The notes: generated by a model from the letters alone, not told the origin. DNA of 60,006 nt from Verrucomicrobiia bacterium (GCA_049511095.1 JBEKYJ010000003.1:1-60006); one strand, 5' to 3'. Shown: positions 4,301-31,866, counted from the first letter of the stretch. Translations and numbers: made by a program.

Positions 4301-6067
4301 GCGGAAACCCAGCCAGGTCAGGCCAATAAACCCCACGTAGAACAATAAGCTGATGCCGCAATGGCGGAGCACGATGTGGCGCAGCGCCGCGACGTAGCCT
4401 CGCCGGCCGGATTCAAACACGTAGTTGAAACCTTGGAACAACCAGCCGACCGAATAGTGAATCAGTCGACCGATGAAATCCTTCTCCTCATGGTGCGGTT
4501 TCAACAGCAACGCCGCCAGCGCCGGGCTGAGCGTCAGCGAGTTGAACGCCGAGATCAGCGTGGAGACGGCCACCGTCAACGCGAACTGCTGATAGAACTT
4601 GCCCGTGATGCCGGCGATGAACGCGGTAGGAATGAACACCGCGCTCAAGACCAGGGCAATGGCGACGACGGCCCCGCTGACCTCGTTCATGGCCGTCTTG
4701 GCCGCCTCCACCGGGGCGAGGCCCTCCGCGAGATGGCGCTCCACGTTCTCCACGACGACGATGGCGTCGTCCACCACGATGCCAATGGCCAGCACCAGTC
4801 CGAACAGTGTCAGGTTGTTGAGCGAGAAGCCCATCGCGGCCATCGCCGCGAACGTGCCGACCAGCGAGACCGGCACCGCCAACAGCGGGATGAGCGACGC
4901 TCGCCAATTCTGGAGGAACAGCACGACAACGAGGACGACGAGAATCATCGCTTCGATGAGCGTTTTGATGACCTCGCGGATGGACTCGCGGATGAACGCC
5001 GAGGTGTCAAAGGCGACGCGGTAGTCCAGCCCTTCGGGGAATTGTTTCTTGAGCTCCTCCATCGCGTGGCGGATGGCGTCGGCCGTCTCGATCGCATTGG
5101 AGCCGGGTTGTTGGAAGATGGCGATAGCGCCGGCCGGCCGGTCGTCCAGTAGGGTGTTGATGCTGTAATCGGCGCCGCCCAGTTCGATGCGGGCCACGTC
5201 CTGCAAGCGGGTGAGTTGGCCAGCGGCGTCGGCCTTCAGGATGATCTCACCGAATTCCTCGGGTGTGATCAGACGTCCATGGGTCTGGGCGGTCAGTTGA
5301 AACAGGTTGTCGGGCGGTTGGGGGGCTTGCCCCAACACGCCGGCGGCAACCTCGACGTTCTGCCGGCGGATCGCCTCCGCAATGTCACCAGCTGTCAGGC
5401 CGCGCGCCGAGGCTTTGTTCGGATCCACCCAGATCCGCATGCTGTAGTCGCGCGCGCCAAAGATGATCGTGTCACCGACGCCGGGCAGCCGGGACAGCAC
5501 GTCGCGTACGTGCAGGTAGGCGTAATTGCTCAAATACAGGCGATCGTACTTGCCGGTGGGCGAGGTCAGGCTGACGATCATGGCGATGGATGGTGAGCGT
5601 TTGCGGACGGTCACGCCCAGCCGGCGAACCTCCTCCGGCAACTTCGGCTCGGCCACGCCCACGCGGTTTTGGACCAGCACCTGCGCCATGTTCGGATCGG
5701 TGCCCACCTTGAAAGTCACGGCCAGACGCAGTTGGCCGTCGCTGCTGCACTGGGCGGACATGTAGAGCATGTTTTCGACGCCGTTGATTTCCTGCTCCAG
5801 CGGCGTGGCCACGGTGTCCGCCACGCTCTTGGCGCTGGCGCCGGGATAGTTGGCCAACACAAAAATGGTCGGCGGCGTGATTTCGGGATACTGGGCAATG
5901 GGCAGCTTGAACAAGGCGATCAGACCCAACAACACGAAGAAAATCGACAGCACCATCGCGAAGATGGGCCGGTGGATGAAGAAATGGGAAAATCTCACAG
6001 GCGCTCCAGGTTGAGGTTTGCCGGATGCATCATTGCCTCGTGGACGACTGGCTGGCCGGCGGGGCAC
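1370..6067 (-). CDS. RND efflux permease (AcrB/MexB-like) fused in frame to an OprM/NodT-like outer-membrane factor lipoprotein
   Basis: N-terminus FFIHRPIFAMVLSIFFVLLGLIALFKLPIAQYPEI and an AcrB-like body run to about aa 1065. Next come KQKR, a hydrophobic stretch and a lipobox FLSGC (Cys codon 2756-2758). A 462-aa OMF follows, ending ALGGGWE, with no stop in between. ATG 6067 overlaps the adaptor gene by 38 nt. GTG 5998 (VRFSHFFIHRP) is a plausible alternative start. Confidence 0.85.
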   Translation of the reverse strand: MPRRPASRPRGNDASGKPQPGAPVRFSHFFIHRPIFAMVLSIFFVLLGLIALFKLPIAQYPEITPPTIFVLANYPGASAKSVADTVATPLEQEINGVENMLYMSAQCSSDGQLRLAVTFKVGTDPNMAQVLVQNRVGVAEPKLPEEVRRLGVTVRKRSPSIAMIVSLTSPTGKYDRLYLSNYAYLHVRDVLSRLPGVGDTIIFGARDYSMRIWVDPNKASARGLTAGDIAEAIRRQNVEVAAGVLGQAPQPPDNLFQLTAQTHGRLITPEEFGEIILKADAAGQLTRLQDVARIELGGADYSINTLLDDRPAGAIAIFQQPGSNAIETADAIRHAMEELKKQFPEGLDYRVAFDTSAFIRESIREVIKTLIEAMILVVLVVVLFLQNWRASLIPLLAVPVSLVGTFAAMAAMGFSLNNLTLFGLVLAIGIVVDDAIVVVENVERHLAEGLAPVEAAKTAMNEVSGAVVAIALVLSAVFIPTAFIAGITGKFYQQFALTVAVSTLISAFNSLTLSPALAALLLKPHHEEKDFIGRLIHYSVGWLFQGFNYVFESGRRGYVAALRHIVLRHCGISLLFYVGFIGLTWLGFRQVPGGFIPSQDKGNIFCYMQLPDGASLQRTAAVSQRVAKLVRETPGIGAVQEFQGLSLVNLGNSANASTLFVRLAPFEERSKEGLTADVIMRQLRARIAQANIQDAFVGVFGAPPVDGLGTLGGFKLQVEDRANLGFAALQEATTKLAAAAMQDRRISGALTTFRAHVPQVYLDVDRAKAESMGVPLNNVWDTLQIYLGSLYVNDFTYLGRPYHVTLQADAPFRAKPEDVPNLKTRNVNGEMVPLGTLATMRDIRAPVLVGHFNMYPTAEITGSLAPGASSGEAIELINDLAGKVLPPGMAIEWTELTLLQIQAGNTAIFILPLCVLMVFLVLAAQYESWSLPLAIILVVPLSLLFAVLGVWARGLDNNLFTQIGLVVLIGLACKNAILIVEFARQLQDAGQNRLEAVIEASRLRLRPILMTSFAFAFGVLPLMVARGAGAEMRVAIGTAVFWGMLGVTFFGLLLTPVFYLVIRQVLERKQKRAGAQASPGSAASAVTTVVLLLGLTSVMFLSGCAAGPNYRQPQTKVDAAFANSSPTNLTTDPVVIEWWRGFTDDTLNRLTEQAVAANHDLRIATARVREARALRTTVVLDLAPTVTVDSGYTRSLSSFDSNPTPLTRDQRKNALYDAGFDAIWEVDIFGRVRRSIQASTADVAALEASRRDVLVTLTSEVARNYFELRGAQHQLDVARQNAENQRETLDITRAKLNAGRATDLDVARAETQLNATLATIPPLEAGMKQTAYRLSVLTGQQPTALDSKLSAPVPQPALPALVSVGSPEQLLRRRPDIRAAERALAAATARIGVATADLFPRVTFIGNLGVSAESFSALSGGGADTYSFGPRITWAALDLGRVRARIKAADARTEAELANYERTVLLALEETEGALVEFGRAQKRRDYLRASAAAAERAEKLAVQRYNSGVEDFLTVLDAQRTLLEIQDQLAQSETRTATALVAVYKALGGGWEIEKQPVPKQGGR

Positions 6068-9391: not shown

Positions 9392-12133
9392 CTATGGGTA
9401 CGTGATTTGGAGGCGATAGAACTTGTTTGTCTGCGTCGCGCCTAGGTCGGTGATGGTCACTTGATTGGCATTCGTCACCGGGACGCTGATACCTGTGAGA
9501 GTGGCCCATGCCCCGCTGGTCAGGTTCGTGCTGAACTGGGGCGTGTAGGTGCGTCCGGACGCAATCGGATTGTAGATCAGGTTCTTCTGGGTGGACACAC
9601 CGGAGACGTTGGCGATCTTTAGCACGAACACCGAGGTTGGGTTGGTCGGGTTGAGACCGGCGACGTACTTGAACAGGTTGTTTTGGCCAGTACCATCAGC
9701 ATCGCAGGTGGCACAGGACTGGCCGTTGGTTGTGTTGCTGGGGATGCTGGGGAAGTACTCTGCACGCCAAGAATCCGGGATGCCGTCGCCGACGCTGTCT
9801 TGCACTACGATGTTGGTGATGATGTTGTAGATGTTGACCCTGTAAAACTTGAAGGGGACAGCCGCGTTCGGATCCGTTACCGTCACCTGGGTGCCGTTGG
9901 TCAAGGGCGCTGAAACAGCTTGCGGACTCCACACGCCTGCCACTAGGTTAGTGACCGATTGCACCACATATGTGTGACCACTGGCGATGGGTTGATAAAT
10001 CAGATTCTTCTGTGTCGGTTGGCCAGGCACATTCTGGATTTGCAGCACGAACACCGAGGCCGGGTTGGTCGGGTCGAGTCCGGCCATGTACTTGAACAGG
10101 TTGTTCTGGCCGGTGCCGTCGGCGTCGCAGGTAGCACAGGATAGGGAGTTGGTGGTTGCGCCGTTGTCGCCGAAGTACTGTGCCCGCCACCAATCGGGAA
10201 TCGTGTCGCCCACGGAGTCCTTGGTGATGGCGACTTGCACATCGACGTACTCGTGAGGCGTGGTACCACCCTCGGCCGTCGGCTGAATGGTGATACTGGC
10301 AGCAGAGTCCGTGAAAGTCGTGCCCACAGCAAGTGCGGCATCTTGGTCACTGTTGCCCGGGGTGGTCATATCGAGAAGATCGCTATGGGTGTTGCCGTTA
10401 TAACCCCAGATGATGTAAGCACCGTTTTGCATGGACGCATTGTCGGTGAAGTTGCGACGGCAACTGATCCAATAGTTGTGCGTGCTGTCCTTGCCTATCT
10501 TCAAAGAGAACGTGCCTGTGGATGCGCTGTTGTCAAAACGATAGATGCGATACGTACCGTTGCTCGTCACCGTCAACACCTGGGTGTCCGATATCCAACC
10601 AAGCGTGTTCTTGAACCATGGGTTGAAATCGGTGCGAGTGTCGTTGGCGAAGTTGGCGCCCATCGTGTCGAAATCATCCCCATATTCCGTACTGGAGCCG
10701 TTTGGGCTAACCGGGTTGCCATCGCTGACCTGCCAAAGATTGGCATGCCAAAGACCGTAAGTATGACCTAGTTCGTGAGCTACGACGCGGAAATCGAACT
10801 CGCCGTTGGCCCATACATCTGGCCCGCCAACTTGGGCCAGGCCGCCGTAGGTGATCCCTGAGCCGGAGATGCTGCCGAGCCAAGAGAACAGGACGATAAT
10901 CCTGTCGTAGTTGCTCAACGTGTAGTTCGCGGCGGCAGCTGTTTCTGCGTCCGAATGCAGTTGGCTGTTAGCATTGTTGACCGCATAGTACGCAGCGGTC
11001 TGCGGCATGCGATAAACCTGAGTGGTGACGGTGTTCGTCAAGCTTGTGAGCGCGTAGGAACTTTGCAGGTAGTAGGGACTAATCTGCGTGTCAGCCAGGT
11101 TTTGAACGTAGGCCGCGGTGTATGTGGTGCCTCCATATATAAACTGGGGGTCGCCGGGCAAATCGGAGAAGTCGACCCGGATGATCAGAATCTTCTTGCC
11201 GCCGGTCGTCCAAGCAGATGGTGCGGCGGCCGTGGTCTCTTCGATTTGGGGTTGTGCGCTTGTCTCCAATAGCGCCGTTGCCTTCAACGTCCGGGGACCG
11301 ATCCCTTCCTCGGCTGCTTCCAGACGGGCTTCTGCTTCCCGCAACTGTTCGGGAGAGGCGAAGCGGTAAATCTTCCCGCTCATCTCAGCGAGTATTGGTG
11401 TCGCCTCGGAGATCGCCCGCTCCGCGGGGATCCTTAGATCAATGATCGGCTTGGTCGCGCCCGGGGCTTCACCGGGTTCGAGTTCACGCAAAACACTCTC
11501 ATGTAGGTCCAGATTATCGTCGAGAGCCACCCCGTGCAGAGGAATACCAAGTTTTGTGGTCTGGCTGGTTCGCCGTCCGTATACATGTGCCCGGTACGTA
11601 CGGCCATTTAGACACACCAACCTTTGAAGCGGCTCAACAGTTGGCCCACCCCGTGCAGGTAGAACACCCAGAACGGAAAGATCACCTATGCCAGAGACGC
11701 GGACTTCCAATTGGCTAACAATCTCAGCGGGCAACTGCTGACGGATCGACGCGGGAACCGCTGAATAGATCGCTCTTGCGGGATCGGACGTGATAAGCGC
11801 AGCAAAGGCGGCGCGGCGCTGCTTTGCCAGACTAAGACCATCAGAGAGCATCGCGGCCCTAGCCGTTCTATCTGATGTGGCTGTGAATCGTGAGGCCCAT
11901 GCATCGAAGTGTGCGAAGACAGGGATAGATTCACTGCGACTCCACCCTTCTGCATAAGTTAAGCTTTGCGCTTTTACCTCCGGCGGTGGAGAACCTTTGG
12001 TGACCGTTTGCGCTTGTGAAAGTTGGGTGAAGAAGAGAAACATGAGGGGGCAGCGGAGAAGGCCGCACCTGCAACTGCTGCTTGGGATTTTCAGAATGGC
12101 GGGGACCAGAGACGTACACTTTTTCGTATTCAT
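9392..12133 (-). CDS. secreted metzincin-type zinc metallopeptidase with two C-terminal repeat modules
   Basis: HELGHTYGLWH matches HExxHxxGxxH. ATG 12133 gives a signal-like N-terminus (MNTKKCTSLVPA...FFTQLSQAQT). The ORF extension to 12511 has no coding character. GC looks lower than in neighbouring genes. Confidence 0.75.
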   Translation of the reverse strand: MNTKKCTSLVPAILKIPSSSCRCGLLRCPLMFLFFTQLSQAQTVTKGSPPPEVKAQSLTYAEGWSRSESIPVFAHFDAWASRFTATSDRTARAAMLSDGLSLAKQRRAAFAALITSDPARAIYSAVPASIRQQLPAEIVSQLEVRVSGIGDLSVLGVLPARGGPTVEPLQRLVCLNGRTYRAHVYGRRTSQTTKLGIPLHGVALDDNLDLHESVLRELEPGEAPGATKPIIDLRIPAERAISEATPILAEMSGKIYRFASPEQLREAEARLEAAEEGIGPRTLKATALLETSAQPQIEETTAAAPSAWTTGGKKILIIRVDFSDLPGDPQFIYGGTTYTAAYVQNLADTQISPYYLQSSYALTSLTNTVTTQVYRMPQTAAYYAVNNANSQLHSDAETAAAANYTLSNYDRIIVLFSWLGSISGSGITYGGLAQVGGPDVWANGEFDFRVVAHELGHTYGLWHANLWQVSDGNPVSPNGSSTEYGDDFDTMGANFANDTRTDFNPWFKNTLGWISDTQVLTVTSNGTYRIYRFDNSASTGTFSLKIGKDSTHNYWISCRRNFTDNASMQNGAYIIWGYNGNTHSDLLDMTTPGNSDQDAALAVGTTFTDSAASITIQPTAEGGTTPHEYVDVQVAITKDSVGDTIPDWWRAQYFGDNGATTNSLSCATCDADGTGQNNLFKYMAGLDPTNPASVFVLQIQNVPGQPTQKNLIYQPIASGHTYVVQSVTNLVAGVWSPQAVSAPLTNGTQVTVTDPNAAVPFKFYRVNIYNIITNIVVQDSVGDGIPDSWRAEYFPSIPSNTTNGQSCATCDADGTGQNNLFKYVAGLNPTNPTSVFVLKIANVSGVSTQKNLIYNPIASGRTYTPQFSTNLTSGAWATLTGISVPVTNANQVTITDLGATQTNKFYRLQITYP
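9395..10219 (-). repeat. tandem duplication of a 135-140-aa module inside the metallopeptidase gene (copies 9800-10219 and 9395-9799)
   Basis: Both copies read DSVGD.IPD.WRA.YF...CATCDADGTGQNNLFKY.AGL.PTNP.SVFVL.I.NV...QKNLIY.PIASG.TY...FYR. Nucleotide similarity is obvious, for example 9600-9720 versus 10020-10150. Confidence 0.85.
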
Positions 12134-12991
12134 CCTGCGTCTCCTCACACGGTCATTTCGGTTGCAGCGTTCACAGGTCACTCGCAACAAAACTCCGTTA
12201 CCTGCTCCTAGCCTCACGCAGACGGGACGCGTTGGGGTTGAGAGGCGGCCCCAGAAACGGGGTGATGCTTGCCTCATACGCCTGTGGGTAGAGGAGAAGC
12301 AAGACATTAATTCTCGTATGGGCCAATCCTCAGTGGCAAAGTTTGCACATACGTTCCAAGGCGACCAGCCCGCGTCTATCGCGGTTTCCTCGCTGGCGAC
12401 GATTGCGGGCCGTGGTGAATAATTACGAGGCTGCGCGAGATGGGCAACTCCGTCGCCGCTCTCCGCGTGCCGCAGGACGGCCAACTGCGTTTTACGCCGC
12501 GTGACCAACAACTACCACACCGAACCATTCAGACCGCCCCCCCAACCCAACGCTCCGCCTGCCGCATTTCGCCCATGCCGACCACCTGCGCTGTACGCCC
12601 GGGTGCACTGCCACAACCACCGCACCGCTGCTCGCTTCCTTCACTCCGCTTACGGCAGATTCTTGGGCAAAGCTCTTCTGGTTTTTCTTTATGGTGACAT
12701 GCTATCGTCGGCTCGATGGCAAGACGGAAGCCGGTCGATGACACTCCGCGCCAAGGGACGGCGGTGCCGGGGGCGTGGCTGGCCGCGGGCATCTTTGCGC
12801 TTCACCCGGTGAGCGTGGAGTCCGTGGCGATGGATCGCGAATACTTGGCGCAGGCCGAGGCCCAGTTGAAGGAAGCGATTCGGGATGGCCGTCGGCGCTG
12901 CGAAATAGCGGTAGCATCAATCCACCGCAGGCGATGGCCAGGAAGCACGATGACTAGCATCCGGTTGTGGCGAAGGGAAAACTGCAATTTT

Positions 12992-14731
12992 TCAACCTGG
13001 AGGTTTGGAGCTTGCGTCCGATTTGCGATGGAAAATCAGAAAAGTTTGGTCGCCCTCAAGATAAGGCCTACCCGGTAGCCAGCCGAGATTGCGAATTTTT
13101 TCCGAGGCATCAAACACCTGAACCTGGTCGTAGTTTTCCTGTAGTGGGCCAGGCTGAACGAGGCTTTTGTGCTCAATGTCCCACGGGCGCAGCACCAGCC
13201 AATCCGGTTTGAGTTCGAGGGAGACTTGATTGTGCCTGTAAGGGCCAAGCCGCTTGCGGACCTCGACCATTTCTTTCGAGGCCAGGCCGAGACCATCGAG
13301 CATCTTCAATCCTGAAAAATAGCCGATGTAACCCAGCGGTTCGAGCATCACGGTGTCGTGCGGCGTTCGCGCGTGGACCCGCAGCCAGAGACCAATCTGG
13401 CGACGCTGTCCATTCTCAATGAGTTGCTGTTGCACCCGCATTTGACGCGCCACGCATACCGTGATGAACAACTGACCTGCAACCAGCAAAAGGGCCAGCA
13501 CACAAAGCGTGCCTCGGAGCAGGCGGCACCAATCACGCCGCCGGCCGGCCAGACCGAGCGCTTGGTCGAACAGAAGGCCGATGGTCAGATAACCGAACAC
13601 TGCGACAGTCGGAAAATACCACGGGTACGGATTTATCAATACGGAGGTCAAAAAAAAGTTCCCCAGAAAAAAGGCCAGCGAAAACAGGCGCAGTTGGGGA
13701 GGCAATGGCGGGAATGGCCAGGCCAGGGCGGCCACAATCCCCAGCGCCGTGCAGAGCGGGAAAATGGACCCAGGCCATCCGCCGAACCACGCGTAGGCCG
13801 GTGCGAATACCCAGCGCAGGCTGGTCACGTCGGTCAACAATGTCCACGGGAACACAAGCAGATTGAACAATTGCGCGCCAATGGAAAACGGAGGCAAAGT
13901 CGTTCCCTTGGCCACGACGGGATACGGCACCGGCGACCCATAGTAACTCCACGCCCACACGAACCAGGGCAAGTAAAGCACGGTGCAAACCAAACCGGCC
14001 GCCAGAAGAACTTTCCACAAGCCCTTTCGTGACTGTCCGGCCGTCCGGTTGGGCGAAAAGAGCAGCGCGCCGATTCCCAGCGCGGCAATATACACGCAAC
14101 TGTCCGGGCGCGTCCACATCAAGCCCGCCCAGCCGGCCCCGATACGCAACATCTGACGCGGACCAGTCACCACCAAACCGTGTATCGCCAGTGCCAGAAA
14201 GAAAAAGAGTAGTCCCGTTTCCATGCCGTTGATGCTGAAATCCACCAGCTTTGCATCCAGCCCAAGGAGTGCCAGGGTCAGCCAGGCGGCCAGGCGATGC
14301 TGTTGCAGTTTTTGCAGCAGGAGAAAAAGCAGGACCATGCCAGCCGCCAGTGCGGCGATGCTCGTCAGACGGAACAGCCACAATGCCAATTCGTCTGATT
14401 GATTACCCGTGAGCCAGCTAAATCCCGCGGGCAGTAAGACCCCTAGCGGCGAGGTGAACGTGTGCAACCGTTCGCCGGGAGTAAAAACGAGGCCGTGGCC
14501 CGTCGCCAGATTTCGACCGCAGCGAAACGTGATCCAATAGTCCTCCCAGACGTGTTGGGTGTAGATCGCAAACACCAAGCCAAAGAGGAACACCGCTCCC
14601 CCGACCATCACAGCAGGTCTGATTACCGCCGTTCGCATGGAGGAGGAAGATAGCCCGCCCGGTTGGCTGGTCAATGTCGGCATGGCCAGTTCGTTTCGGG
14701 GACGATAACACCGATTACGAATCGTTGACAA
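12992..14731 (-). CDS. polytopic membrane glycosyltransferase, GT-C fold (ArnT/PMT/arabinofuranosyltransferase-like); family tentative
   Basis: Many hydrophobic segments. N-terminal loop motif WEDYWITFRCGRNLATGHGLVFTPGERLHTFTSPL. The start may be an internal Met (14683 or 14638). Confidence 0.65.
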   Translation of the reverse strand: MSTIRNRCYRPRNELAMPTLTSQPGGLSSSSMRTAVIRPAVMVGGAVFLFGLVFAIYTQHVWEDYWITFRCGRNLATGHGLVFTPGERLHTFTSPLGVLLPAGFSWLTGNQSDELALWLFRLTSIAALAAGMVLLFLLLQKLQQHRLAAWLTLALLGLDAKLVDFSINGMETGLLFFFLALAIHGLVVTGPRQMLRIGAGWAGLMWTRPDSCVYIAALGIGALLFSPNRTAGQSRKGLWKVLLAAGLVCTVLYLPWFVWAWSYYGSPVPYPVVAKGTTLPPFSIGAQLFNLLVFPWTLLTDVTSLRWVFAPAYAWFGGWPGSIFPLCTALGIVAALAWPFPPLPPQLRLFSLAFFLGNFFLTSVLINPYPWYFPTVAVFGYLTIGLLFDQALGLAGRRRDWCRLLRGTLCVLALLLVAGQLFITVCVARQMRVQQQLIENGQRRQIGLWLRVHARTPHDTVMLEPLGYIGYFSGLKMLDGLGLASKEMVEVRKRLGPYRHNQVSLELKPDWLVLRPWDIEHKSLVQPGPLQENYDQVQVFDASEKIRNLGWLPGRPYLEGDQTFLIFHRKSDASSKPPG

Positions 14732-23237: not shown

Positions 23238-25460
23238 ATGAAGAAGATTCTGTTCATCTGCACAGGCAATGTTTGTCGCAGCCCGATGGCGGAGGGCCTG
23301 CTCCGGCACATGCTGCGCGGTCGCAACGACGTTCAGGTGGCCTCCGCGGGCCTCGCCGCGCTTGACAGCCTGCGGGCCACGGATGCCGCCATCAACGTCA
23401 TGGCCGAACTTGGCATGGACATTTCCTCGCACGTCAGCCAATCGTTGAACAGCGATCTGGCGCGGCAGGCGGATTTTATTTTTGTGATGACCCACCAGCA
23501 TCAGGACACGCTCCAGACGCTTATTCCGTCCGCCGCTGAGAAGACGTTTCTCGTGCGCGAGTTCGAGGAGTCCCGCGCCGGCGAGAACAAAGACATCGCC
23601 GATCCGATTGGCCAGTCCATCGATGTGTACCGCCGTACGCGCGACCAGATTCGCGACGCGTTGCCGAGCCTGATCGTGTTCATGGACCAGACCACGGCCG
23701 CGGCACGCAGGGTGACCCGGGAAGTCACGGCGCCGGCCACGAATGAAGAAGCCCGGCCGTTGCGCATCGCGCTGGCGGGCGATCACGGCGGCGTCGAGAT
23801 CAAGGCAGCGTTGAAGGATTGGCTGGCACAGCACGGTTATCCATTCTCCGATTTTGGCACACACACGACCGAGCCGGTGGATTACCCTGAGTACGCGTTT
23901 ATCGTCGCGCGAGAGTTGCTGGCCGGAAATTTTGACCGCGGGGTGCTGGTCTGCAAGAGCGGCATCGGCATGACCATTGCCGCCAACCGGTTTCCCGGCG
24001 TGCGCGCCGCCATGGTCAGTAACGAACAGTGGGCCCGCCTCAGCCGCGAGCACAACAACGCCAACGTCCTTGTGTTATCGGGCATCGAACTCAACGGGGA
24101 ACAAGCCAAGCAACTTTTGGACGTCTGGTTGCACACGGACTTCGGTGGCGGTCGCCACGCTCGCCGCGTCGACGAAATGGACCATCCACCTGTCATGAAC
24201 GTCACCTCGACACCCTCAAAAAAGACATCGGCGCTGGCAGTGGCTGACCCCGAGATTTTCAGCGCCGTCCAGCGTGAGAAGCAACGCCAGCAGGAAAACA
24301 TCGAGTTGATCGCCAGCGAAAATTTTGTCTCGCCCGCGATTCTCGAAGCGGCGGGCTCGGTGCTCACGAACAAGTACGCTGAAGGCTACCCCGGTAAGCG
24401 TTATTACGGCGGCTGTGAATACGTGGATATCGCCGAACAACTCGCGATCGACCGCGCCAAACAGCTTTTCGGCGCCGAACACGTGAACGTCCAGCCGCAT
24501 TCCGGTTCGCAGGCCAACATGGCGGTGTACTTCGCCACCATCCAGCATGGAGACACGATCTTGACAATGGAGCTGGCCCACGGCGGCCATCTCACCCACG
24601 GCTCGCCGCGCAATTTCTCGGGCCGCTTCTACAAGGTCGTGCACTACGGTGTGCGCCAGGACACCGAAAGGATCGACTACGATCAACTGGCCAAGCTCGC
24701 GCAGGATTGCCGCCCGAAGATGATCACCGCCGGCGCCAGCGCGTATCCGCGGATCATCGACTTTCAGAAGATGCGCGAGATTGCCGACAGCGTCGGCGCG
24801 CTGCTCTTTGTCGATATGGCGCACATCGCGGGCCTAGTTGCCGCCGGCATTCATCCCAGCCCCGTACCCTTGGCCGATTTCGTCACCACGACCACGCACA
24901 AAACGCTGCGCGGCCCGCGCGCCGGTTTGATTCTCTGCAAAGCGAAATACGCCAAGGACATCGACAGTTGGGTGCTGCCGGGTATTCAAGGCGGGCCGCT
25001 CATGCACATCATTGCCGCGAAAGCGGTCTGTTTCCTCGAAGCGATGAAGCCCGATTTCAAGGACTATCAACGACAGATCGTGAAAAACGCCAAGGCACTC
25101 GCCACCGCGTTGGCAGCGCACGGTTTCCGCATCGTCAGCGGCGGGACGGACAATCATTTGATGCTCGTCGATCTCCGCCCGAAGAAACTCACCGGCAAGA
25201 TTGCCCAGGAATCGCTCGACCGCGCCGGCATCACGACGAACAAGAATCTTATCCCGTACGATCCCGAGAAGCCGCTTGTCACCAGCGGCATCCGCCTCGG
25301 CACGCCTGCTGTCACCACCCGCGGCATGAAAGAAGCCGAGATGGACCAGGTCGCCGCGCTCATCACCGAAGTGCTGGCGAAGCCAGACGATACAGCCCTG
25401 CAAGCCAGCGTAAAGCAAAAGGTGCGCGCCCTGACCGCGAAATTCCCACTGTCGTATTAG
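23238..25460 (+). CDS. glyA: tri-domain fusion: LMW protein phosphatase (aa 1-150) + ribose-5-phosphate isomerase B (aa ~174-314) + serine hydroxymethyltransferase (aa ~330-740)
   Basis: Phosphatase motifs: CTGNVCRS P-loop and DIADPIG. RpiB motifs: [11 protein letters not shown] and [20 protein letters not shown] motifs: [34 protein letters not shown]. One continuous frame, ending in TAG. Confidence 0.9.
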
Positions 25461-27909: not shown

Positions 27910-28111
27910 AGGGCTTGTCGAGCAATCACATTTCTCGCTACACTCGGTCGCGATGCAGGCGAGCGCATACCAAGTCTGCGGCGGCTGTACCCAGAAGACC
28001 CTTGCGATAGCTTCCACCCGAAGACGATCTCAATTGGACCATGACCCCCGGCACCGGCGACTACGAGATCATCATCGACCGCAACAATTTTATCGATGAA
28101 AGGTTTGGAAT

Positions 28112-31100
28112 ATGGCTGCGATGAAACCTGAAGAGAGTTGGCTGCGCGCTGACGACAAGGTGCGGAAGAACCTGCCGCCGGGCGTGAAACTCGTGCGCAC
28201 GCTACGGGGACATACGGGCTACATCGGGCGCATCGCGTGGTCGCCGGACGGGCGAATGTTGGCCTCGCCGTCGGAGGACAAGACGATCCGGCTGTGGGAT
28301 GCCGAGACGGGCGAGTGCCTGCGCATGCTGGAAGGACACGAGGACCAAGTCTATAGCGTCGCCTTTGATCCGACGGGCCGCACGCTGGCCAGCGGGAGTG
28401 GCGACAAAACGGTCAAGCTGTGGGAGCCGGCCAGCGGCAAACTGCGCCGCACGCTGAAAGGGCACCAGTCCGCGATTTGGAGCGTCGGCTTCGATCCGGC
28501 GGGCCGCACCTTGGCCAGCGGCGGTTCTGACGGGACGGTCAATCTTTGGGATCTGGCCTCTGGAGAAGTTCATCGCACCCTAGGACCACACCCTTCGTAT
28601 GTATCAAGCGTGGCCTTTGACAGACAGGGTTCCTTCCTAGTATGCGCGGTCGGCTTCGGTAGCCCAATGGTCAAGCTGTGGGAGACATCCAGTGGCAAAG
28701 TCCTTCACACCCTCACTGGGCACGAAGGCCAAGTAAATTCTGTCGCTATCGACAACGAGGGACTATCTGTAGCAAGTAGTGCCGGCGATAAGACGATCAA
28801 GTTGTGGGCAGCGGACACTGGACAGCTCATTCGCACTTTAGAAGGACACACGAATGATGTGAATTGCGTCGCATTTATTCGAGATGGGCAACTGTTGGCG
28901 AGCAAAGGCTGTGGCGGCGACAACACTGTGCGCCTCTGGCACAGCAAGAACGGCGTTTGCGTCGCCAAGATCTCGGAGCCAGCTGTGGGGCGAATCGTGC
29001 CTGGTCTTGCCTTCCACCCGCGCCTGCCACTTCTCGCCACGGCCGGTTCAGATCCCGGCACGCCGAGAGAACAGTGTGACCGCGTCATCCACATCTGGGA
29101 GCTGGACCTTGCCGTCCTGCTCGGCCGGGTGGCAGAGCCAACCGCCCACTACGTCAACGCCAAGGTGGTGTTGGTGGGCGACACAGGCGTGGGCAAGACT
29201 GGTCTAAGCCTGGTGTTGAACAGCCAACCCTACAAGGAAACCGACTCGACGGCGGGGCGGCACGTGTGGACGTTCGGTTCACAGGAAGTGAGTGTCGGAA
29301 GCAACGTCACGCAGACCCGCGAGACGCTGTTGTGGGATTTGGCCGGCCAGCCGGGCTACCGCGTCATCCACCAGTTGCACCTCAACGAAGTGGCTGTCGC
29401 GCTCGTGGTGTTCGATGCGCGCAGCGAGACCGATCCGCTGGCCGGCGTCCGGCACTGGGAGCGTGCCTTGCGCCTAGCGCAACAGCGTCAGGGGACCGCA
29501 GGCGTGCCCATGAAGAAGTTTCTGGTGTCCGCCCGCAACGACCGCGGCGGCGTGTCCATCGGTGAGGACCGCGTGCAGAAGATCCTCGATGAATTCGGCT
29601 TCGACGGTTACTTCAAGACCAGCGCCAAGGAAGGCTGGCAGGTCAAAGAATTACGGGCAGCCATTGAGCAGGCGGTCGCTTGGGAAAAGCTGCCGGAGGT
29701 TTCGTCTTCGCAATTGTTCGCCGACATCAAGTCGTTCCTGCTGGAGGTGAAGAAGACGGGACGGTTGCTGGCTCCTGCGGGCCAGCTTTACGACGACTTC
29801 GCCCGCCAGAATCCCGACACGGTGGTGAAAGTGGCGAACCTCCGGGACCAGTTCGTTACGTGCATCGGCCGGCTGGAAAACCGTGACCTGATCCGCCGCC
29901 TGACCTTCGGCGGCTATGTGCTGCTCCAACCGGAACTGTTGGACGCCTATGCCTCCGCGATGGTTAACACGGCGAAAGAGGAACCGGACGGCCTCGGTTC
30001 GCTGGCGGAAGAAGTCGCGCTCGCCGGCAAGTTCTTCGTGCCAAAGGAGCAGAAGATCACGGACGCCGGCCAAGAGCAGTTGCTGTTACACGCGACGGTG
30101 GAAGAACTGGTCCGGCACGACCTGGCGCTGCGGGAAAACGCGGATGACGGGCGCTACCTGGTCTTTCCATCGCAGTTCAACCGCGATTACGAAGACGCGC
30201 CCGAACCGAAAGGCAAGGCGGTGGCGCTGACCTTCGACGGGCCGGTCCAGAGCCTTTACTCGACGCTGGCGGTGCGGCTAGGTCACAGCGGATTGTTCGC
30301 GACCCGGCGGGTGGAGATGTGGCGAAATGCGGCGGTGTTCACCGCCAAAGCGGGTGGCAAGTGTGGACTGTTCCTGCACGAGTTCGCCGAGGGGCGCGGC
30401 CGCTTGATCCTCTTCTACGACAAACAGGCCAGCATTGAGACGCGCTTCCACTTCGAGGAATTTGTCATAGCCCACGCCAATCAGCGCGCGCTGGATGACA
30501 CGGTCGAACTTGTGCGCTTCTTCGTGTGTCCCGATTGTGGCGACCCGGTGCCCGACAGTTATGTGAAGCGACTCAGGGAAAAAGGAACAATGGAGTTCAA
30601 TTGTCCTTGCGGCGGAACCGTGTCACTGGCCGAGCCGAAGGAGCGGATTCACTTCAAATCGAAAGTTGAGGCGATGGAGAAATCCGCCGACCGACAGCGG
30701 GACTTCGATGCGTTCGTCCTGTCGGCCAAGGGGGAGACGAGGACGAGGAGCTTCCAAGACTGGGCCGGAGGCGAGCGGGTCACGCTGGCGATTGTGTTCA
30801 CCGATGTCGTCGGCTCGACGGCCCTGGGAGAGGAAATCAGGGATGAGGCCATGGACGCAGTCCGGCGGGCGCACTTTGCCCAAAGCCGGAAGCTGATCGG
30901 CCAGTTCAAGGGCCGGGAAATCAAGACCATTGGCGACAGCTTCATGGCGGCGTTCAGATCCGTGGATGCCGCTCTGGACTACGCTTTGGCGTTGCATGGG
31001 AATACCGGCCATCCGCAGGTGCAGATTCGCGCCGGCATTCATATCGGGCCGATGCAGGTGGAGGAAGGCGATGTGTTCGGCGGCACCGTGAACTTCGCCG

Positions 31101-31273
31101 CCCGCGTGGTTGGCGCCATTCAGGGTGCGGAAATCTGGCTGAGCGAGCGGGCGAAAGAAGACATTGATCGGCTCGGTGCCGCACAGCACAAAGGGTTGGG
31201 ATGGAAACAGCACGAGCGGGTCACCATGAAGGGCTTCCCCGGCACCTTCACTCTTTGGTCGTTGCGGAAGTAA
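28112..31273 (+). CDS. WD40 (7 blades) - Roc/Ras-like GTPase - COR-like - zinc ribbon - class III adenylate/guanylate cyclase multidomain protein
   Basis: Seven GH...D-K-T-[IV]-[KR]-LW blades (aa 25-335). GTPase motifs G1 GDTGVGKT, G3 WDLAGQ and SARND (aa 349-520). Zinc ribbon CPDCG...CPCGG (aa 806-834). Cyclase motifs FTDVVGST, KTIGDSFMAAF and GGTVNFAARV (aa 888-1050). Confidence 0.9.
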   Translation: MAAMKPEESWLRADDKVRKNLPPGVKLVRTLRGHTGYIGRIAWSPDGRMLASPSEDKTIRLWDAETGECLRMLEGHEDQVYSVAFDPTGRTLASGSGDKTVKLWEPASGKLRRTLKGHQSAIWSVGFDPAGRTLASGGSDGTVNLWDLASGEVHRTLGPHPSYVSSVAFDRQGSFLVCAVGFGSPMVKLWETSSGKVLHTLTGHEGQVNSVAIDNEGLSVASSAGDKTIKLWAADTGQLIRTLEGHTNDVNCVAFIRDGQLLASKGCGGDNTVRLWHSKNGVCVAKISEPAVGRIVPGLAFHPRLPLLATAGSDPGTPREQCDRVIHIWELDLAVLLGRVAEPTAHYVNAKVVLVGDTGVGKTGLSLVLNSQPYKETDSTAGRHVWTFGSQEVSVGSNVTQTRETLLWDLAGQPGYRVIHQLHLNEVAVALVVFDARSETDPLAGVRHWERALRLAQQRQGTAGVPMKKFLVSARNDRGGVSIGEDRVQKILDEFGFDGYFKTSAKEGWQVKELRAAIEQAVAWEKLPEVSSSQLFADIKSFLLEVKKTGRLLAPAGQLYDDFARQNPDTVVKVANLRDQFVTCIGRLENRDLIRRLTFGGYVLLQPELLDAYASAMVNTAKEEPDGLGSLAEEVALAGKFFVPKEQKITDAGQEQLLLHATVEELVRHDLALRENADDGRYLVFPSQFNRDYEDAPEPKGKAVALTFDGPVQSLYSTLAVRLGHSGLFATRRVEMWRNAAVFTAKAGGKCGLFLHEFAEGRGRLILFYDKQASIETRFHFEEFVIAHANQRALDDTVELVRFFVCPDCGDPVPDSYVKRLREKGTMEFNCPCGGTVSLAEPKERIHFKSKVEAMEKSADRQRDFDAFVLSAKGETRTRSFQDWAGGERVTLAIVFTDVVGSTALGEEIRDEAMDAVRRAHFAQSRKLIGQFKGREIKTIGDSFMAAFRSVDAALDYALALHGNTGHPQVQIRAGIHIGPMQVEEGDVFGGTVNFAARVVGAIQGAEIWLSERAKEDIDRLGAAQHKGLGWKQHERVTMKGFPGTFTLWSLRK

Positions 31274-31300: not shown

Positions 31301-31332
31301 CGGAGCGGACGCCTCGGAGAGGCGTCCCTACC
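31301..31332. repeat. REP-like hairpin element, copy 1 (identical 32-mer)
   Basis: The sequence is cggagcGGACGCCTCggaGAGGCGTCCctacc: a 9-bp stem, 3-nt loop and CTACC tail. It is identical to 31469-31500. Confidence 0.85.
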
Positions 31333-31468
31333 AACGACAGGCAAAGGCAACGGCGGCAGGGCGTGTCGTCAGGCTCCGCTATCGGGAATTGATATTATTG
31401 CTGGACGGGGTGGGCCGGGGGTGGTATGATGGCGACAGTTGTTTGACAAACGTGTTGGGAGGAAGAAA

Positions 31469-31500
31469 CGGAGCGGACGCCTCGGAGAGGCGTCCCTACC
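31469..31500. repeat. REP-like hairpin element, copy 2 (identical 32-mer)
   Basis: Same 32 nt as 31301-31332. The flanks are also similar (acg.c...aagg). Confidence 0.85.
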
Positions 31501-31668
31501 GACGGCGAAGGAATGATGGTTGGCAAGGGGGTTTGCACTCGCTCGCGCCCGCTCGGCTTCGCACGCTACAACGGCCACTCGGATGGGCTGGGGATTGCCG
31601 CAGGAAAGGAGTTGCGGCGTCTCGAGGACTCGGCTTCCCACGCTACACCAACTTGCCGGTGAACACAG

Positions 31669-31742: not shown

Positions 31743-31791
31743 TAAAGAGGCGTTGGCTGGGGAACTCTTTATAAGAATACGCTTTTTTACC

Positions 31792-31866
31792 AAACGAACC
31801 CAACTGAAAAATGCGTAAGCGTCGTAGCATGAAATGGTTAGGGAAAAATTGGAGTTGGGTTCGTTT
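31792..31866. repeat. 13-bp perfect inverted repeat (AAACGAACCCAAC / GTTGGGTTCGTTT) with a 49-nt spacer in an AT-rich spacer upstream of fba
   Basis: Read directly: arms at 31792-31804 and 31854-31866. Related GAACCC/GGGTTC motifs occur at 31939-31946 and 31993-32003. Confidence 0.7.

Follow-up and report, generated by a model that had tools for sequence, protein, structure and literature searches.

Domain layout of a 1053-residue protein

The window analysed here is a stretch of 60,006 nucleotides from a Verrucomicrobiia bacterium (GCA_049511095.1 JBEKYJ010000003.1:1-60006). According to the ORF listing, it carries on the plus strand, at 28112..31273, an open reading frame of 1053 amino acids whose product combines a WD40 propeller, a Roc GTPase, a COR domain, a zinc ribbon and a class III cyclase, in that order. 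All features below lie on the same strand. A preliminary description of the sequence had proposed this ORF and this domain order, and both hold. The AF2 model of the full-length protein has a pLDDT of 87.6 and a pTM of 0.82.

A conserved N-terminal helix (aa 6-19) precedes the seven-bladed WD40 beta-propeller at aa 25-331 (28184..29104). PF00400 matches with an E-value of 9e-68, and between aa 25 and 331 the full-length model contains 27 strands of at least three residues, which we grouped as seven four-stranded blades. The profile thereby confirms the WD40 assignment, and the model the seven blades given earlier.

The Roc (Rab-like) GTPase occupies aa 344-521 (29141..29674). PF08477 (55.4 bits, cut-off 27) and PF00071 (56 bits) match aa 351-520, and the previous assignment to the Ras-like Roc GTPases is well founded: the G1 (GDTGVGKT), G3 (WDLAGQ) and G5 (TSAK) motifs are canonical, and G4 is present as a degenerate A-R-N-D. 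The motif residues are K362 of the P-loop, T380 of switch I, D409 and Q413 of G3, A474-R475-N476-D477 of G4 and S504-A505-K506 of G5. They are invariant, including D477, with the exception of N476 (63/68), which is the x position of G4, and K506 (at least 90%). The best PDB sequence matches are Rab29, Rab32 and Rab38. Profile searches found no STAND ATPase module of the NACHT/NB-ARC type in the protein, only the Ras/Roc-type GTPase.

The COR domain is placed at aa 529-795 (29696..30496), with COR-A at about 529-690 and COR-B at about 700-795. The AF2 model of aa 340-890 (pLDDT 90.8, pTM 0.88) was compared with known structures using Foldseek, and it aligns with LRRK2, LRRK1, C. tepidum Roco (6HLU, 3DPU) and M. 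barkeri Roco2 over 538-566 columns, with E-values from 1e-17 to 1e-11, a TMq of 0.52-0.60 and an identity of 13-16%. Rab-only matches of the same model reach 0.26. The first 24 ranks all go to Roco proteins, with alignments of 528-694 columns that extend past the Roc domain. According to the model, a COR domain is thus located directly C-terminal to Roc, as a fold match without sequence-HMM support: no Pfam model matches the region even at E<=10. The COR-like region suggested earlier is in this way recovered from its fold and not by Pfam, in contrast to the WD40, Roc and cyclase domains, which Pfam recognises. The kinship to Roco proteins appears at the fold level only, while sequence profiles put the G domain nearest to Rab29/32/38. 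COR-B is the dimerisation device of known Roco proteins, and C. tepidum Roco alternates between a monomeric and a dimeric form as its nucleotide state changes.

That one protein unites a propeller and a GTPase with a class III cyclase had earlier evoked a heterotrimeric-G-protein-like cascade fused into one chain, with a G-beta propeller, a G-alpha switch and their cyclase. Besides this superficial co-occurrence there is a sub-threshold match to WD40_Gbeta, but its 129 bits fall short of the 150-bit cut-off, and it is outscored by many generic propeller models. A COR follows the GTPase, which is of the Roc/Rab type; the GTPase segment matches no G-alpha family in Pfam at E<=10, there is no helical insertion domain, and in relatives the output position is usually held by a TIR. 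We therefore consider such a cascade very improbable and the analogy superficial.

The Cys4 zinc ribbon, aa 799-838 (30506..30625), is formed by C806, C809, C831 and C833, and the conservation of these residues agrees with its previous identification. In the cyclase clade C806, C831 and C833 are invariant, and C809 is found in 50/68 members, the other 18/68 having a CxxGH variant; across the wider family three cysteines never vary, and conservation of the fourth is 90% or more. It is followed by a long helical linker at aa 852-885 (30665..30766; AF2 helices H852-875 and H879-885) that is common to the cyclase-type and TIR-type relatives. An M-x3-AD-x2-R motif is kept in an alignment that includes the TIR-type members.

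The catalytic domain of the class III nucleotidyl cyclase covers aa 888-1052 (30773..31267). PF00211 matches aa 892-1050 with 60 bits (cut-off 21.9), and the best sequence matches are Ma1120 (4WP8, E 4e-18), Rv1900c/LipJ (E 3e-13) and Rv1264 (E 3e-8). The six catalytic residues are the metal-binding D898 and D942, the substrate pair K938 and D987, and the transition-state residues N994 and R998. All are invariant or nearly so among 68 homologues, both K938 and D987 being invariant, which agrees with the earlier view of an intact and, as predicted from sequence, active cyclase. The base-selecting pair had, however, been given as Lys plus Gly, which is a register error. In the alignment with Ma1120, K938 corresponds to K101, D987 (in EEGDVFGG) to D157, N994 to position 164 and R998 to R168, and K101 and D157 are the ATP-specifying pair of Ma1120 as defined by experiment (PMC4215837). 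Because the pair is the canonical Lys938/Asp987, the product can be predicted, contrary to what had been stated: the enzyme should turn ATP into cAMP.

A conserved chassis, a variable propeller and their genomic setting

Sequence conservation was compared among 67 colinear full-length homologues. Identity averages 0.51 over WD40 but 0.79-0.84 over Roc, COR and cyclase and 0.76-0.77 over the zinc ribbon and linker, with COR the most conserved part (0.84). The divergence is concentrated in blades 2-6, aa 51-300 (28262..29011), which form a hypervariable sensor cassette with an identity of 0.31-0.61, compared with 0.75-0.97 for the chassis. The dN is 0.3-0.8 in the propeller and 0.07-0.26 in the chassis. 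From Roc to cyclase the dN/dS is about 0.1, so the chassis is under strong purifying selection; for WD40 it is about 0.2-0.35, i.e. not above 1.

At silent sites, too, blades 2-6 differ much more than the chassis, and this pattern points to an exchange of sensor cassettes between lineages. Their pS is 0.7-0.8 against about 0.4 in the chassis, and at 4-fold degenerate sites they have diverged by 0.53-0.81, compared with 0.33-0.49 for the chassis (Fisher p from 3.5e-5 to 0.04). A comparison of two paralogues from one MAG does not show this excess. Divergence is lower, as in the chassis, over the first 50 codons and in the last blade.

The ORF could in principle be an assembly chimera, in which the propeller of one organism was joined to the conserved chassis of another. 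The chassis is highly similar among co-occurring genomes, and two of five short contigs end at aa 336-346, the WD40/Roc junction. However, the identical 1053-residue product is found on four independent contigs from four samples, of which the two long ones (44.6 and 28.5 kb) include the housekeeping genes on either side, while the two short ones end in a cut or small ORF next to the gene. There are at least 67 colinear full-length homologues, the nearest relatives have about 85% DNA identity, probably too little for mis-joins at k=141, and the chassis shares its lower divergence with the first 50 codons and the last blade. An assembly chimera is hardly credible.

The gene is flanked by housekeeping genes, a spermine-synthase-like gene and a fructose-bisphosphate aldolase. 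No recognisable defence island was found around it, and a second locus examined was likewise unremarkable. In 40 loci we found neither a conserved neighbour nor a cNMP-binding effector, the gene being always solitary, which extends the earlier observation that no effector gene is adjacent. A regex scan of the 60-kb window, a weak test, gave no cNMP-binding motif. Outside the WD40 region, the PADLOC models gave nothing but weak PycC matches.

A 27-residue upstream ORF at 28041..28124 overlaps the start region. It exists as described before, but it is conserved in no homologous locus examined: a comparable peptide was found in none of 16 loci. The ORF was also considered as a TIR relic, and this was rejected. 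It is probably a chance ORF and no gene.

Distribution and exchange of the output domain

The architecture is common in metagenomes, with more than 120 clusters at 77-91% identity, and we found no experimental study of any member in the literature; of the possibility raised earlier, that it might be both common and already characterised, only the first half applies. Annotation pipelines name the architecture piecewise.

The cyclase-type gene is present in at least ten bacterial phyla, including Planctomycetota, Verrucomicrobiota, Acidobacteriota, Nitrospirota, Bacteroidota, Gemmatimonadota and Proteobacteria; among Archaea it occurs in Methanothrix and Methanosarcina. Its distribution is patchy, the archaeal copies nest among the bacterial ones, and the gene has been transferred horizontally across phyla and domains. 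Its GC content follows that of the host, and single MAGs contain paralogous copies. A cultured TIR-type relative is located on a mobilizable Calothrix plasmid, adjoining an integrase and a transposase.

The family defined by the COR-zinc ribbon module has 1534 representatives at 50% clustering. In the best 150 of these the output position holds a TIR in 105, a cyclase in 21, both in four and neither in 20, and most of the last group are shorter than about 500 residues and fragment-like. Pfam confirms TIR_2 in family members, and a W-x-x-E motif, which we read as containing the catalytic Glu, is kept in at least 80% of 115 TIR segments. Some cyclase-type members have an additional N-terminal TIR.

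Proteins that join an AP-GTPase to COR, with variable sensors and C-terminal effectors of at least 24 kinds, have been predicted to be counter-invader systems, and the catalogue includes one LRR-AP-GTPase-COR-ACYC protein, TAG07081.1 (PMC8195603). The statement that bacterial ROCO proteins mostly have no enzymatic output is therefore not supported, as these C-terminal domains include TIR and this LRR-Roc-COR-cyclase. In conflict systems cNMP cyclases alternate with TIR and caspase domains, and they are classed as second-messenger generators (PMC7159879).

With that classification, the protein might be the signal-generating half of a two-part system similar to Pycsar or Thoeris, its cyclic nucleotide activating a cNMP-binding effector whose gene lies at another site of the genome. 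The intact catalytic residues and a weak similarity to PycC profiles agree with this. We nevertheless find it quite unlikely, as the 40 loci share no neighbour, the regex scan of the window was negative, the Lys/Asp pair predicts ordinary cAMP and no dedicated pyrimidine signal, and a partner gene at another site would be left behind when this gene moves between phyla by itself.

Proposed mechanism and comparison with known systems

We propose that the protein is a stand-alone, NLR-like Roco (AP-GTPase) conflict receptor in which a dimerisation switch gates a dimer-dependent adenylyl cyclase, and we give this reading a probability of roughly 0.55. The WD40 propeller would be the ligand sensor, with central blades that lineages swap and diversify. 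Roc-COR would act as a switch whose conformation and dimerisation depend on GTP, and the conserved zinc ribbon and long helix would couple it to the output position. The output would be a homodimer-type class III cyclase, whose active sites form across the dimer interface only. A ligand at the propeller, a changed nucleotide state of Roc, or both, would alter the self-association of the chassis, so that two cyclase domains meet and cAMP synthesis is turned on. The resulting burst of cAMP, possibly together with a drain of ATP, may cause growth arrest or alarm signalling upon invasion. Class III cyclases and TIR NADases alike require self-association. Since a TIR on the same chassis would likewise need it to become an NADase, the chassis may be regarded as an induced-proximity device with interchangeable outputs that consume nucleotides or signal. 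The domain identities, the catalytic residues, the alternation of TIR and cyclase across the family, the pattern of selection and the horizontal spread are seen directly in the comparisons. That the protein serves immunity, what triggers it, in which direction GTP acts and what cAMP does downstream are parts of the scheme that we infer, and GTP may turn the cyclase either on or off.

Of the two functions offered in the preliminary description, the comparative evidence favours the STAND-like sensor with a nucleotide output, although the protein has no STAND ATPase and belongs to neither CBASS nor Pycsar. It is favoured because TIR replaces the cyclase on the WD40-Roc-COR-Zn chassis (105/150 representatives), because the blades are hypervariable and the chassis conserved, because the gene moves between phyla and domains, and because a role in conflict has been proposed before for AP-GTPase/COR proteins with variable C-terminal effectors (PMC8195603). 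The variable repeat sensor, AP-GTPase, COR and variable effector position by which such systems are recognised are all present, the sensor being WD40 and not LRR.

An ordinary physiological enzyme has also to be considered, a GTP-gated adenylyl cyclase whose propeller binds an endogenous partner and whose cAMP feeds a normal regulon, with no part in immunity. Multidomain class III cyclases are widespread as sensors, and this one is nearest to mycobacterial signalling cyclases (Ma1120, Rv1900c, Rv1264) and not to Pycsar cyclases. It has no dedicated effector gene, its flanks are housekeeping genes outside any defence island, and Roc-COR-cyclase is under very strong purifying selection (dN/dS about 0.1). 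A chassis identity of about 80% at this dN/dS is unusually conservative for an immune gene and counts against the immune reading. So do the housekeeping flanks and the missing defence island and linked effector, the WD40 dN/dS that stays below 1, the near absence of PADLOC matches outside WD40 and a kinship to Roco proteins seen in the fold alone. On the other hand, a purely physiological role fits poorly with the TIR that most relatives carry instead of a cyclase on the same chassis, the members that have both, the patchy distribution with cross-domain transfer, the hypervariable and recombining sensor blades, the paralogues in single MAGs and the relative on a mobilizable plasmid next to an integrase. 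We consider it unlikely.

The conflict-receptor reading has a bolder form: a mobile one-chain Roco immune receptor of Bacteria and methanogenic Archaea, in which exchangeable WD40 cassettes detect invaders, the Roc-COR dimerisation switch directly fires the cyclase as the terminal output, a burst of cAMP or drain of ATP leads to arrest, and cAMP synthesis is functionally interchangeable with a TIR NADase. This we put forward tentatively, at somewhat less than an even chance. If true, it would be the first Roco with a GTP cycle readable through a simple enzymatic product. If the immune reading as such is right, the NLR-like prokaryotic receptors would gain a GTPase chassis with swappable sensors and swappable TIR/cyclase outputs, and one could ask whether ordinary cAMP, or ATP depletion, can act as an immune effector. 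What the comparisons describe is a horizontally spreading family with a variable propeller sensor and an LRRK2-like GTP switch, usually with TIR and here with a cyclase as output. How Roc-COR controls an output domain is a long-standing open question, prominent through LRRK2 and Parkinson's disease, and the bacterial Roco models so far (C. tepidum, M. barkeri) have no catalytic output. A compact prokaryotic Roco with a dimer-dependent cyclase would give a quantitative cAMP read-out of the switch. It is also a case of modular receptor evolution, with a chassis about 80% identical over at least ten phyla and two domains and with apparently older, recombining blades.

The logic of CBASS or Pycsar had been invoked earlier. 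Membership in CBASS was rejected since profile searches found no CD-NTase domain in the protein. With Pycsar it shares a class III-type cyclase as found in a defence context (PycC). The PycC matches are weak, E 0.007 (13.8 bits) and 0.21 (PADLOC), the predicted substrate is a purine (ATP), no effector gene is adjacent and the cyclase is fused to a sensor and a switch; given the weak scores and the lack of a conserved neighbour, membership was rejected here as well. With Ma1120, Rv1900c and Rv1264 the cyclase shares the Lys/Asp substrate pair and the metal-binding Asp residues, but the mycobacterial enzymes have other regulatory modules (alpha/beta-hydrolase, pH sensor), and Asn994 is canonical here where Ma1120 has Ala164.

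The Roc-COR tandem fold is common to C. tepidum Roco, M. barkeri Roco2 (6HLU, 3DPU, 4WNR), LRRK2, LRRK1 and our protein, each with a G domain, here predicted to be GTP-competent, followed by COR-A and COR-B. The sensor differs, being an N-terminal WD40 propeller with no LRR or ankyrin repeats, while the WD40 of LRRK2 is C-terminal. The output is a cyclase, compared with a kinase in LRRK2 and no catalytic output in C. tepidum and M. barkeri Roco, and the zinc ribbon is an addition.

The closest description is the AP-GTPase catalogue of Kaur, Iyer, Burroughs and Aravind (eLife 2021, PMC8195603, Fig. 6D), a computational prediction throughout, which contains the same chain of repeat sensor, Roc-type GTPase, COR and variable C-terminal effector. 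As in our family, TIR is a frequent effector and there are multiple paralogues per genome. The catalogued proteins use N-terminal LRRs, and the string 'WD40+AP-GTPase' is absent from the tables of that study. Unlike them, our family has a conserved Cys4 zinc ribbon and linker helix after COR, a COR that escapes the Pfam COR models, and a large cyclase clade in Bacteria and Archaea.

The STAND/NLR-like antiviral sensors Avs and bNACHT, with TIR or other effectors, follow the same logic: a sensor made of repeats is coupled to an NTP switch, and oligomerisation activates the effector. TIR is a shared effector. Their switch is a STAND ATPase, whereas here it is a TRAFAC-class small GTPase with a COR domain.

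Domain architecture and authenticity of the gene

The open reading frame at 28112..31273 (+) is present as described, with a product of 1053 aa. Profile searches agree with the preliminary description on the WD40 repeats (PF00400, E 9e-68), the Roc/Ras GTPase (PF08477, 55 bits; PF00071, 56 bits; aa 351-520) and the class III cyclase (Guanylate_cyc, PF00211, 60 bits, aa 892-1050). In NCBIfam the protein gave only sub-threshold matches, to LipJ and small_GTP. The COR-like region proposed earlier was not seen by sequence profile, as Pfam gave no COR or other match between Roc and cyclase, even at E<=10 and with aa 520-810 searched alone.

Because of this lack of a Pfam match, aa 340-890 were modelled with AF using an alignment of 32 diverse relatives (A1), giving a pLDDT of 90.8 and a pTM of 0.88. 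The 24 best PDB matches of the model are all Roco proteins, i.e. LRRK2, LRRK1 and C. tepidum Roco (6HLU, 3DPU), and M. barkeri Roco2 is found at rank 26. The Roco matches extend over 538-566 alignment columns (the modelled segment has 551 residues) with TM-scores of 0.52-0.60, compared with 0.26 for GTPase-only matches. Since these matches cover the full modelled segment, the region is, according to the model, a genuine COR (COR-A plus COR-B) at the fold level. When the Roc-COR-Zn profile was searched against PDB sequences, the top 60 matches were Rab GTPases only, so the Roco link is invisible at the sequence level. The suggested analogy with heterotrimeric G-proteins is not supported.

The full-length model (pLDDT 87.6, pTM 0.82) consists of a WD40 propeller of seven four-stranded blades (aa 25-331), Roc (aa 344-521), COR (aa 529-795), a zinc ribbon (aa 799-838), a long helix (aa 852-885) and the cyclase (aa 891-1052). 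The zinc ribbon is also borne out by its four zinc ligands, which are conserved family-wide except at C809 in the cyclase clade, where a CxxGH variant replaces this residue in 18/68 sequences. Overall, the domain architecture is genuine, with good support.

Four contigs, each from a different sample (two ENA, two JGI), encode an identical 1053-aa product. Both long contigs have the same housekeeping neighbours on either flank; on the two short ones the gene adjoins no more than a cut or small ORF. There are at least 67 full-length colinear homologues. In two short assemblies (L057, L059) the contig ends at aa 336-346, the WD40/Roc junction, which we attribute to high similarity among co-occurring genomes of the Roc-COR-zinc ribbon-linker-cyclase part, here called the chassis. 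Three other contigs (L048, L049, L052) end 256-274 nt upstream of the downstream aldolase gene fba, at about 31788-31806 of the window. An inverted repeat lies here, downstream of the gene (31782-31805/31853-31876), at this second recurring break place in independent short assemblies. Breaks recurring at two places suggest either strain-level variation or a conserved chassis that behaves like a repeat in assembly graphs.

Cyclase active site and alternative output domains

The base-selecting pair was earlier proposed to be Lys (EIKTIGD) and Gly (FGGTVN), with a product that could not be predicted. According to the HMMER alignment to Ma1120 this is the wrong register: K938 corresponds to K101, D987 (in EEGDVFGG) to D157, N994 to position 164 and R998 to R168. 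Experiments have defined K101 and D157 of Ma1120 as the residues that specify ATP, with the canonical Asn site at position 164 (PMC4215837). All of 68 homologues retain K938, D987 and the metal-binding D898 and D942, and N994 and R998 are each found in 67/68. We predict an adenylyl cyclase. The match of K938/D987 to the ATP-specifying pair makes the product predictable, and it should be cAMP.

An exhaustive search with the COR-Zn-linker (aa 521-890) gave 1534 representatives at 50% clustering, of which 492 have E<=1e-30. Roc-COR is present in nearly all of the best 150, usually with an N-terminal WD40. Among these 150 the output domain is TIR in 105, cyclase in 21, both in four and neither in 20; most of the last group are fragment-like and under about 500 aa, and six are 900-1350 aa long. 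TIR_2 was confirmed by Pfam in the TIR-type members, and their TIR segments conserve a W-x-x-E motif, which we take to hold the catalytic Glu. Several close members of the cyclase clade, e.g. in Methanothrix, add an N-terminal TIR and reach ~1200 aa. A cultured relative, BAZ36750.1 from the mobilizable plasmid4 of Calothrix sp. NIES-4101, is a WD40-Roc-COR-Zn-TIR protein whose gene has integrase and transposase genes next to it.

Class III cyclases function as obligate dimers and form their active sites across the interface, and self-association is also required by TIR NADases. In Roco proteins COR-B is the dimerisation element, and C. tepidum Roco alternates between monomer and dimer according to its nucleotide state. 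The most economical model for the 1053-aa protein is an induced-proximity device. The propeller would sense a ligand, Roc-COR would alter self-association with the help of the conserved zinc ribbon and linker helix, and two output domains would then be brought together to convert ATP to cAMP. The effect might be signalling via host receptors, a drain on ATP or activation of an unlinked effector. What triggers the protein, the direction of GTP control, the effect of cAMP and a part in immunity are all inferences here.

Evolution, distribution and genomic context

The mean identity to the query over 67 full-length homologues is 0.84 for Roc, 0.84 for COR and 0.79 for the cyclase, versus 0.51 for the whole WD40 and 0.31-0.37 for its blades 4-6. 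Compared with 16 loci (Nei-Gojobori), the chassis has a dN of 0.07-0.26 and a dS from 0.6 to saturation, i.e. a dN/dS of about 0.1, and the WD40 has a dN of 0.31-0.84. Synonymous divergence is uneven, near saturation at codons 51-300 (pS 0.7-0.8) and with a pS near 0.4 at codons 1-50, the last blade and the chassis. The test was repeated at 4-fold degenerate sites within codons having identical prefixes, where blades 2-6 exceed the chassis in every between-lineage pair (e.g. 0.62 vs 0.35, p = 3.5e-5), and two paralogues in one MAG do not differ (0.16 vs 0.18). This silent-site excess in the central blades between lineages shows that these blades and the chassis have different histories, which fits either exchange of the sensor cassette or homogenisation of the chassis. 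A diversity-generating retroelement was considered as a source of the WD40 variation, and no template-like repeat was found near the gene.

A search with aa 340-1053 gave 2328 matches, and the best 120 clusters (90% identity) are 77-91% identical across the whole query. The domain order, for which the preliminary description proposed a metagenome search, is common but uncharacterised. Among species-representative genomes the gene is present at 66-87% identity in MAGs of bacteria (Planctomycetota, Verrucomicrobiota, Acidobacteriota, Nitrospirota, Bacteroidota, Gemmatimonadales, Betaproteobacteria, Magnetococcus, Victivallales) and archaea (Methanothrix/Methanotrichaceae, Methanosarcina); three of these are closed chromosomes, and no isolate genome matched the cyclase-type gene. 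Its GC content (0.44-0.66) follows that of the host. In a neighbour-joining tree of the chassis, archaeal copies are nested in bacterial ones and Planctomycetes copies are polyphyletic. A Methanotrichaceae copy (81% nucleotide identity, dS 0.9) is nearer the window copy than the Planctomycetes copies are. Two short, low-coverage contigs binned as Opitutaceae (L005, L015) have small downstream ORFs, one of them matching UPF0158, in common with Methanothrix loci (L003, L006, L008, L032). They may be mis-binned archaeal contigs, so part of the taxonomic breadth given by MAG labels needs care.

As a transfer vehicle, no relatives were found in IMG/VR viral contigs or GenBank phages, and the sole close plasmid match was the TIR-type relative of Calothrix. 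The gene is not bracketed by direct or inverted repeats of the kind seen around mobile elements. An all-against-all BLAST of ORFs from 40 homologous loci yielded nothing beyond shadow ORFs and a lineage-specific synteny within Methanothrix. No neighbour gene is conserved, in line with the earlier remark that an adjacent effector is lacking, and the context is ordinary both in the window and in a second locus. Over the whole window, Rfam gave no match and a six-frame regex for the cNMP-binding phosphate-binding cassette, a weak test, found none. PADLOC has no system model for the protein.

The 27-aa upstream ORF (28041-28124) shows no conservation. The three closest relatives have short ORFs that overlap the start of the gene (L001 8863-8982, L002 8400-8906, L024 9070-9228); these begin with a TIR-like N-terminus ('..DVFLSYNSNDKARVRRLAEWF..') and then lose the frame. 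They resemble decayed or frameshifted remains of the N-terminal TIR, which the ~1200-aa versions carry as an in-frame fusion. No relic of this kind is present in the upstream spacer of the window itself, and we rejected the spacer or its ORF as a decayed TIR: there is no similarity, and homology to TIR-bearing versions sets in precisely where the ORF starts.

Two copies, 97% identical, of a 36-nt element (31301-31336 and 31469-31504) lie in the 788 nt that separate the gene from fba, each with a perfect 9-bp-stem palindrome (GGACGCCTC GGA GAGGCGTCC). The first copy starts 28 nt past the stop codon, and none would be expected by chance. The element, found only in contigs of the same strain and not beside homologues elsewhere, may be a terminator or REP-like.

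Elsewhere in the window, the upstream gene (23238-25460, +) encodes 740 aa with LMWPc, RpiB, aminotransferase and SHMT families on a single chain, an unusual multi-enzyme fusion according to precomputed annotations. Another unusual fusion, of an inner-membrane pump and a TolC-like duct, is the 1564-aa ORF at 1370-6067 (-), with a complete AcrB-type RND transporter (PF00873, 1120 bits) and a C-terminal outer-membrane efflux protein domain (OEP, PF02321). Two large ORFs, 9392-12511 (-, 1038 aa) and 12992-14731 (-, 578 aa), are essentially without Pfam assignment; the former resembles M12/M11 metallopeptidases only weakly and below threshold, around aa 474-617.

Comparison with known systems

The protein lacks defining features of CBASS, Pycsar and STAND systems and does not qualify as a member of any of them; PycC (Pycsar) profiles give marginal matches only and there is no conserved neighbour. 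Prokaryotic conflict systems centred on AP-GTPase and COR carry N-terminal LRRs that evolve rapidly, and their C-terminal domain varies among at least 24 alternatives (Kaur et al., eLife 2021, PMC8195603). The tables of that study list many LRR-AP-GTPase-COR-TIR and exactly one LRR-AP-GTPase-COR-ACYC, and the WD40-AP-GTPase architecture is absent from them. In conflict systems the place of a cNMP cyclase may be taken by TIR or caspase (Kaur et al., eLife 2020, PMC7159879). Our literature search found no experimental work on any protein of such architecture. The unusual evolutionary pattern of the WD40-Roc-COR-cyclase gene is worth pursuing, and the protein is a potential tractable model for the control of output by Roc-COR. 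It is best classed with the predicted Roco/AP-GTPase conflict sensors, as a variant that differs from them in sensing through WD40 repeats, in its additional zinc ribbon and in having a cyclase as output.
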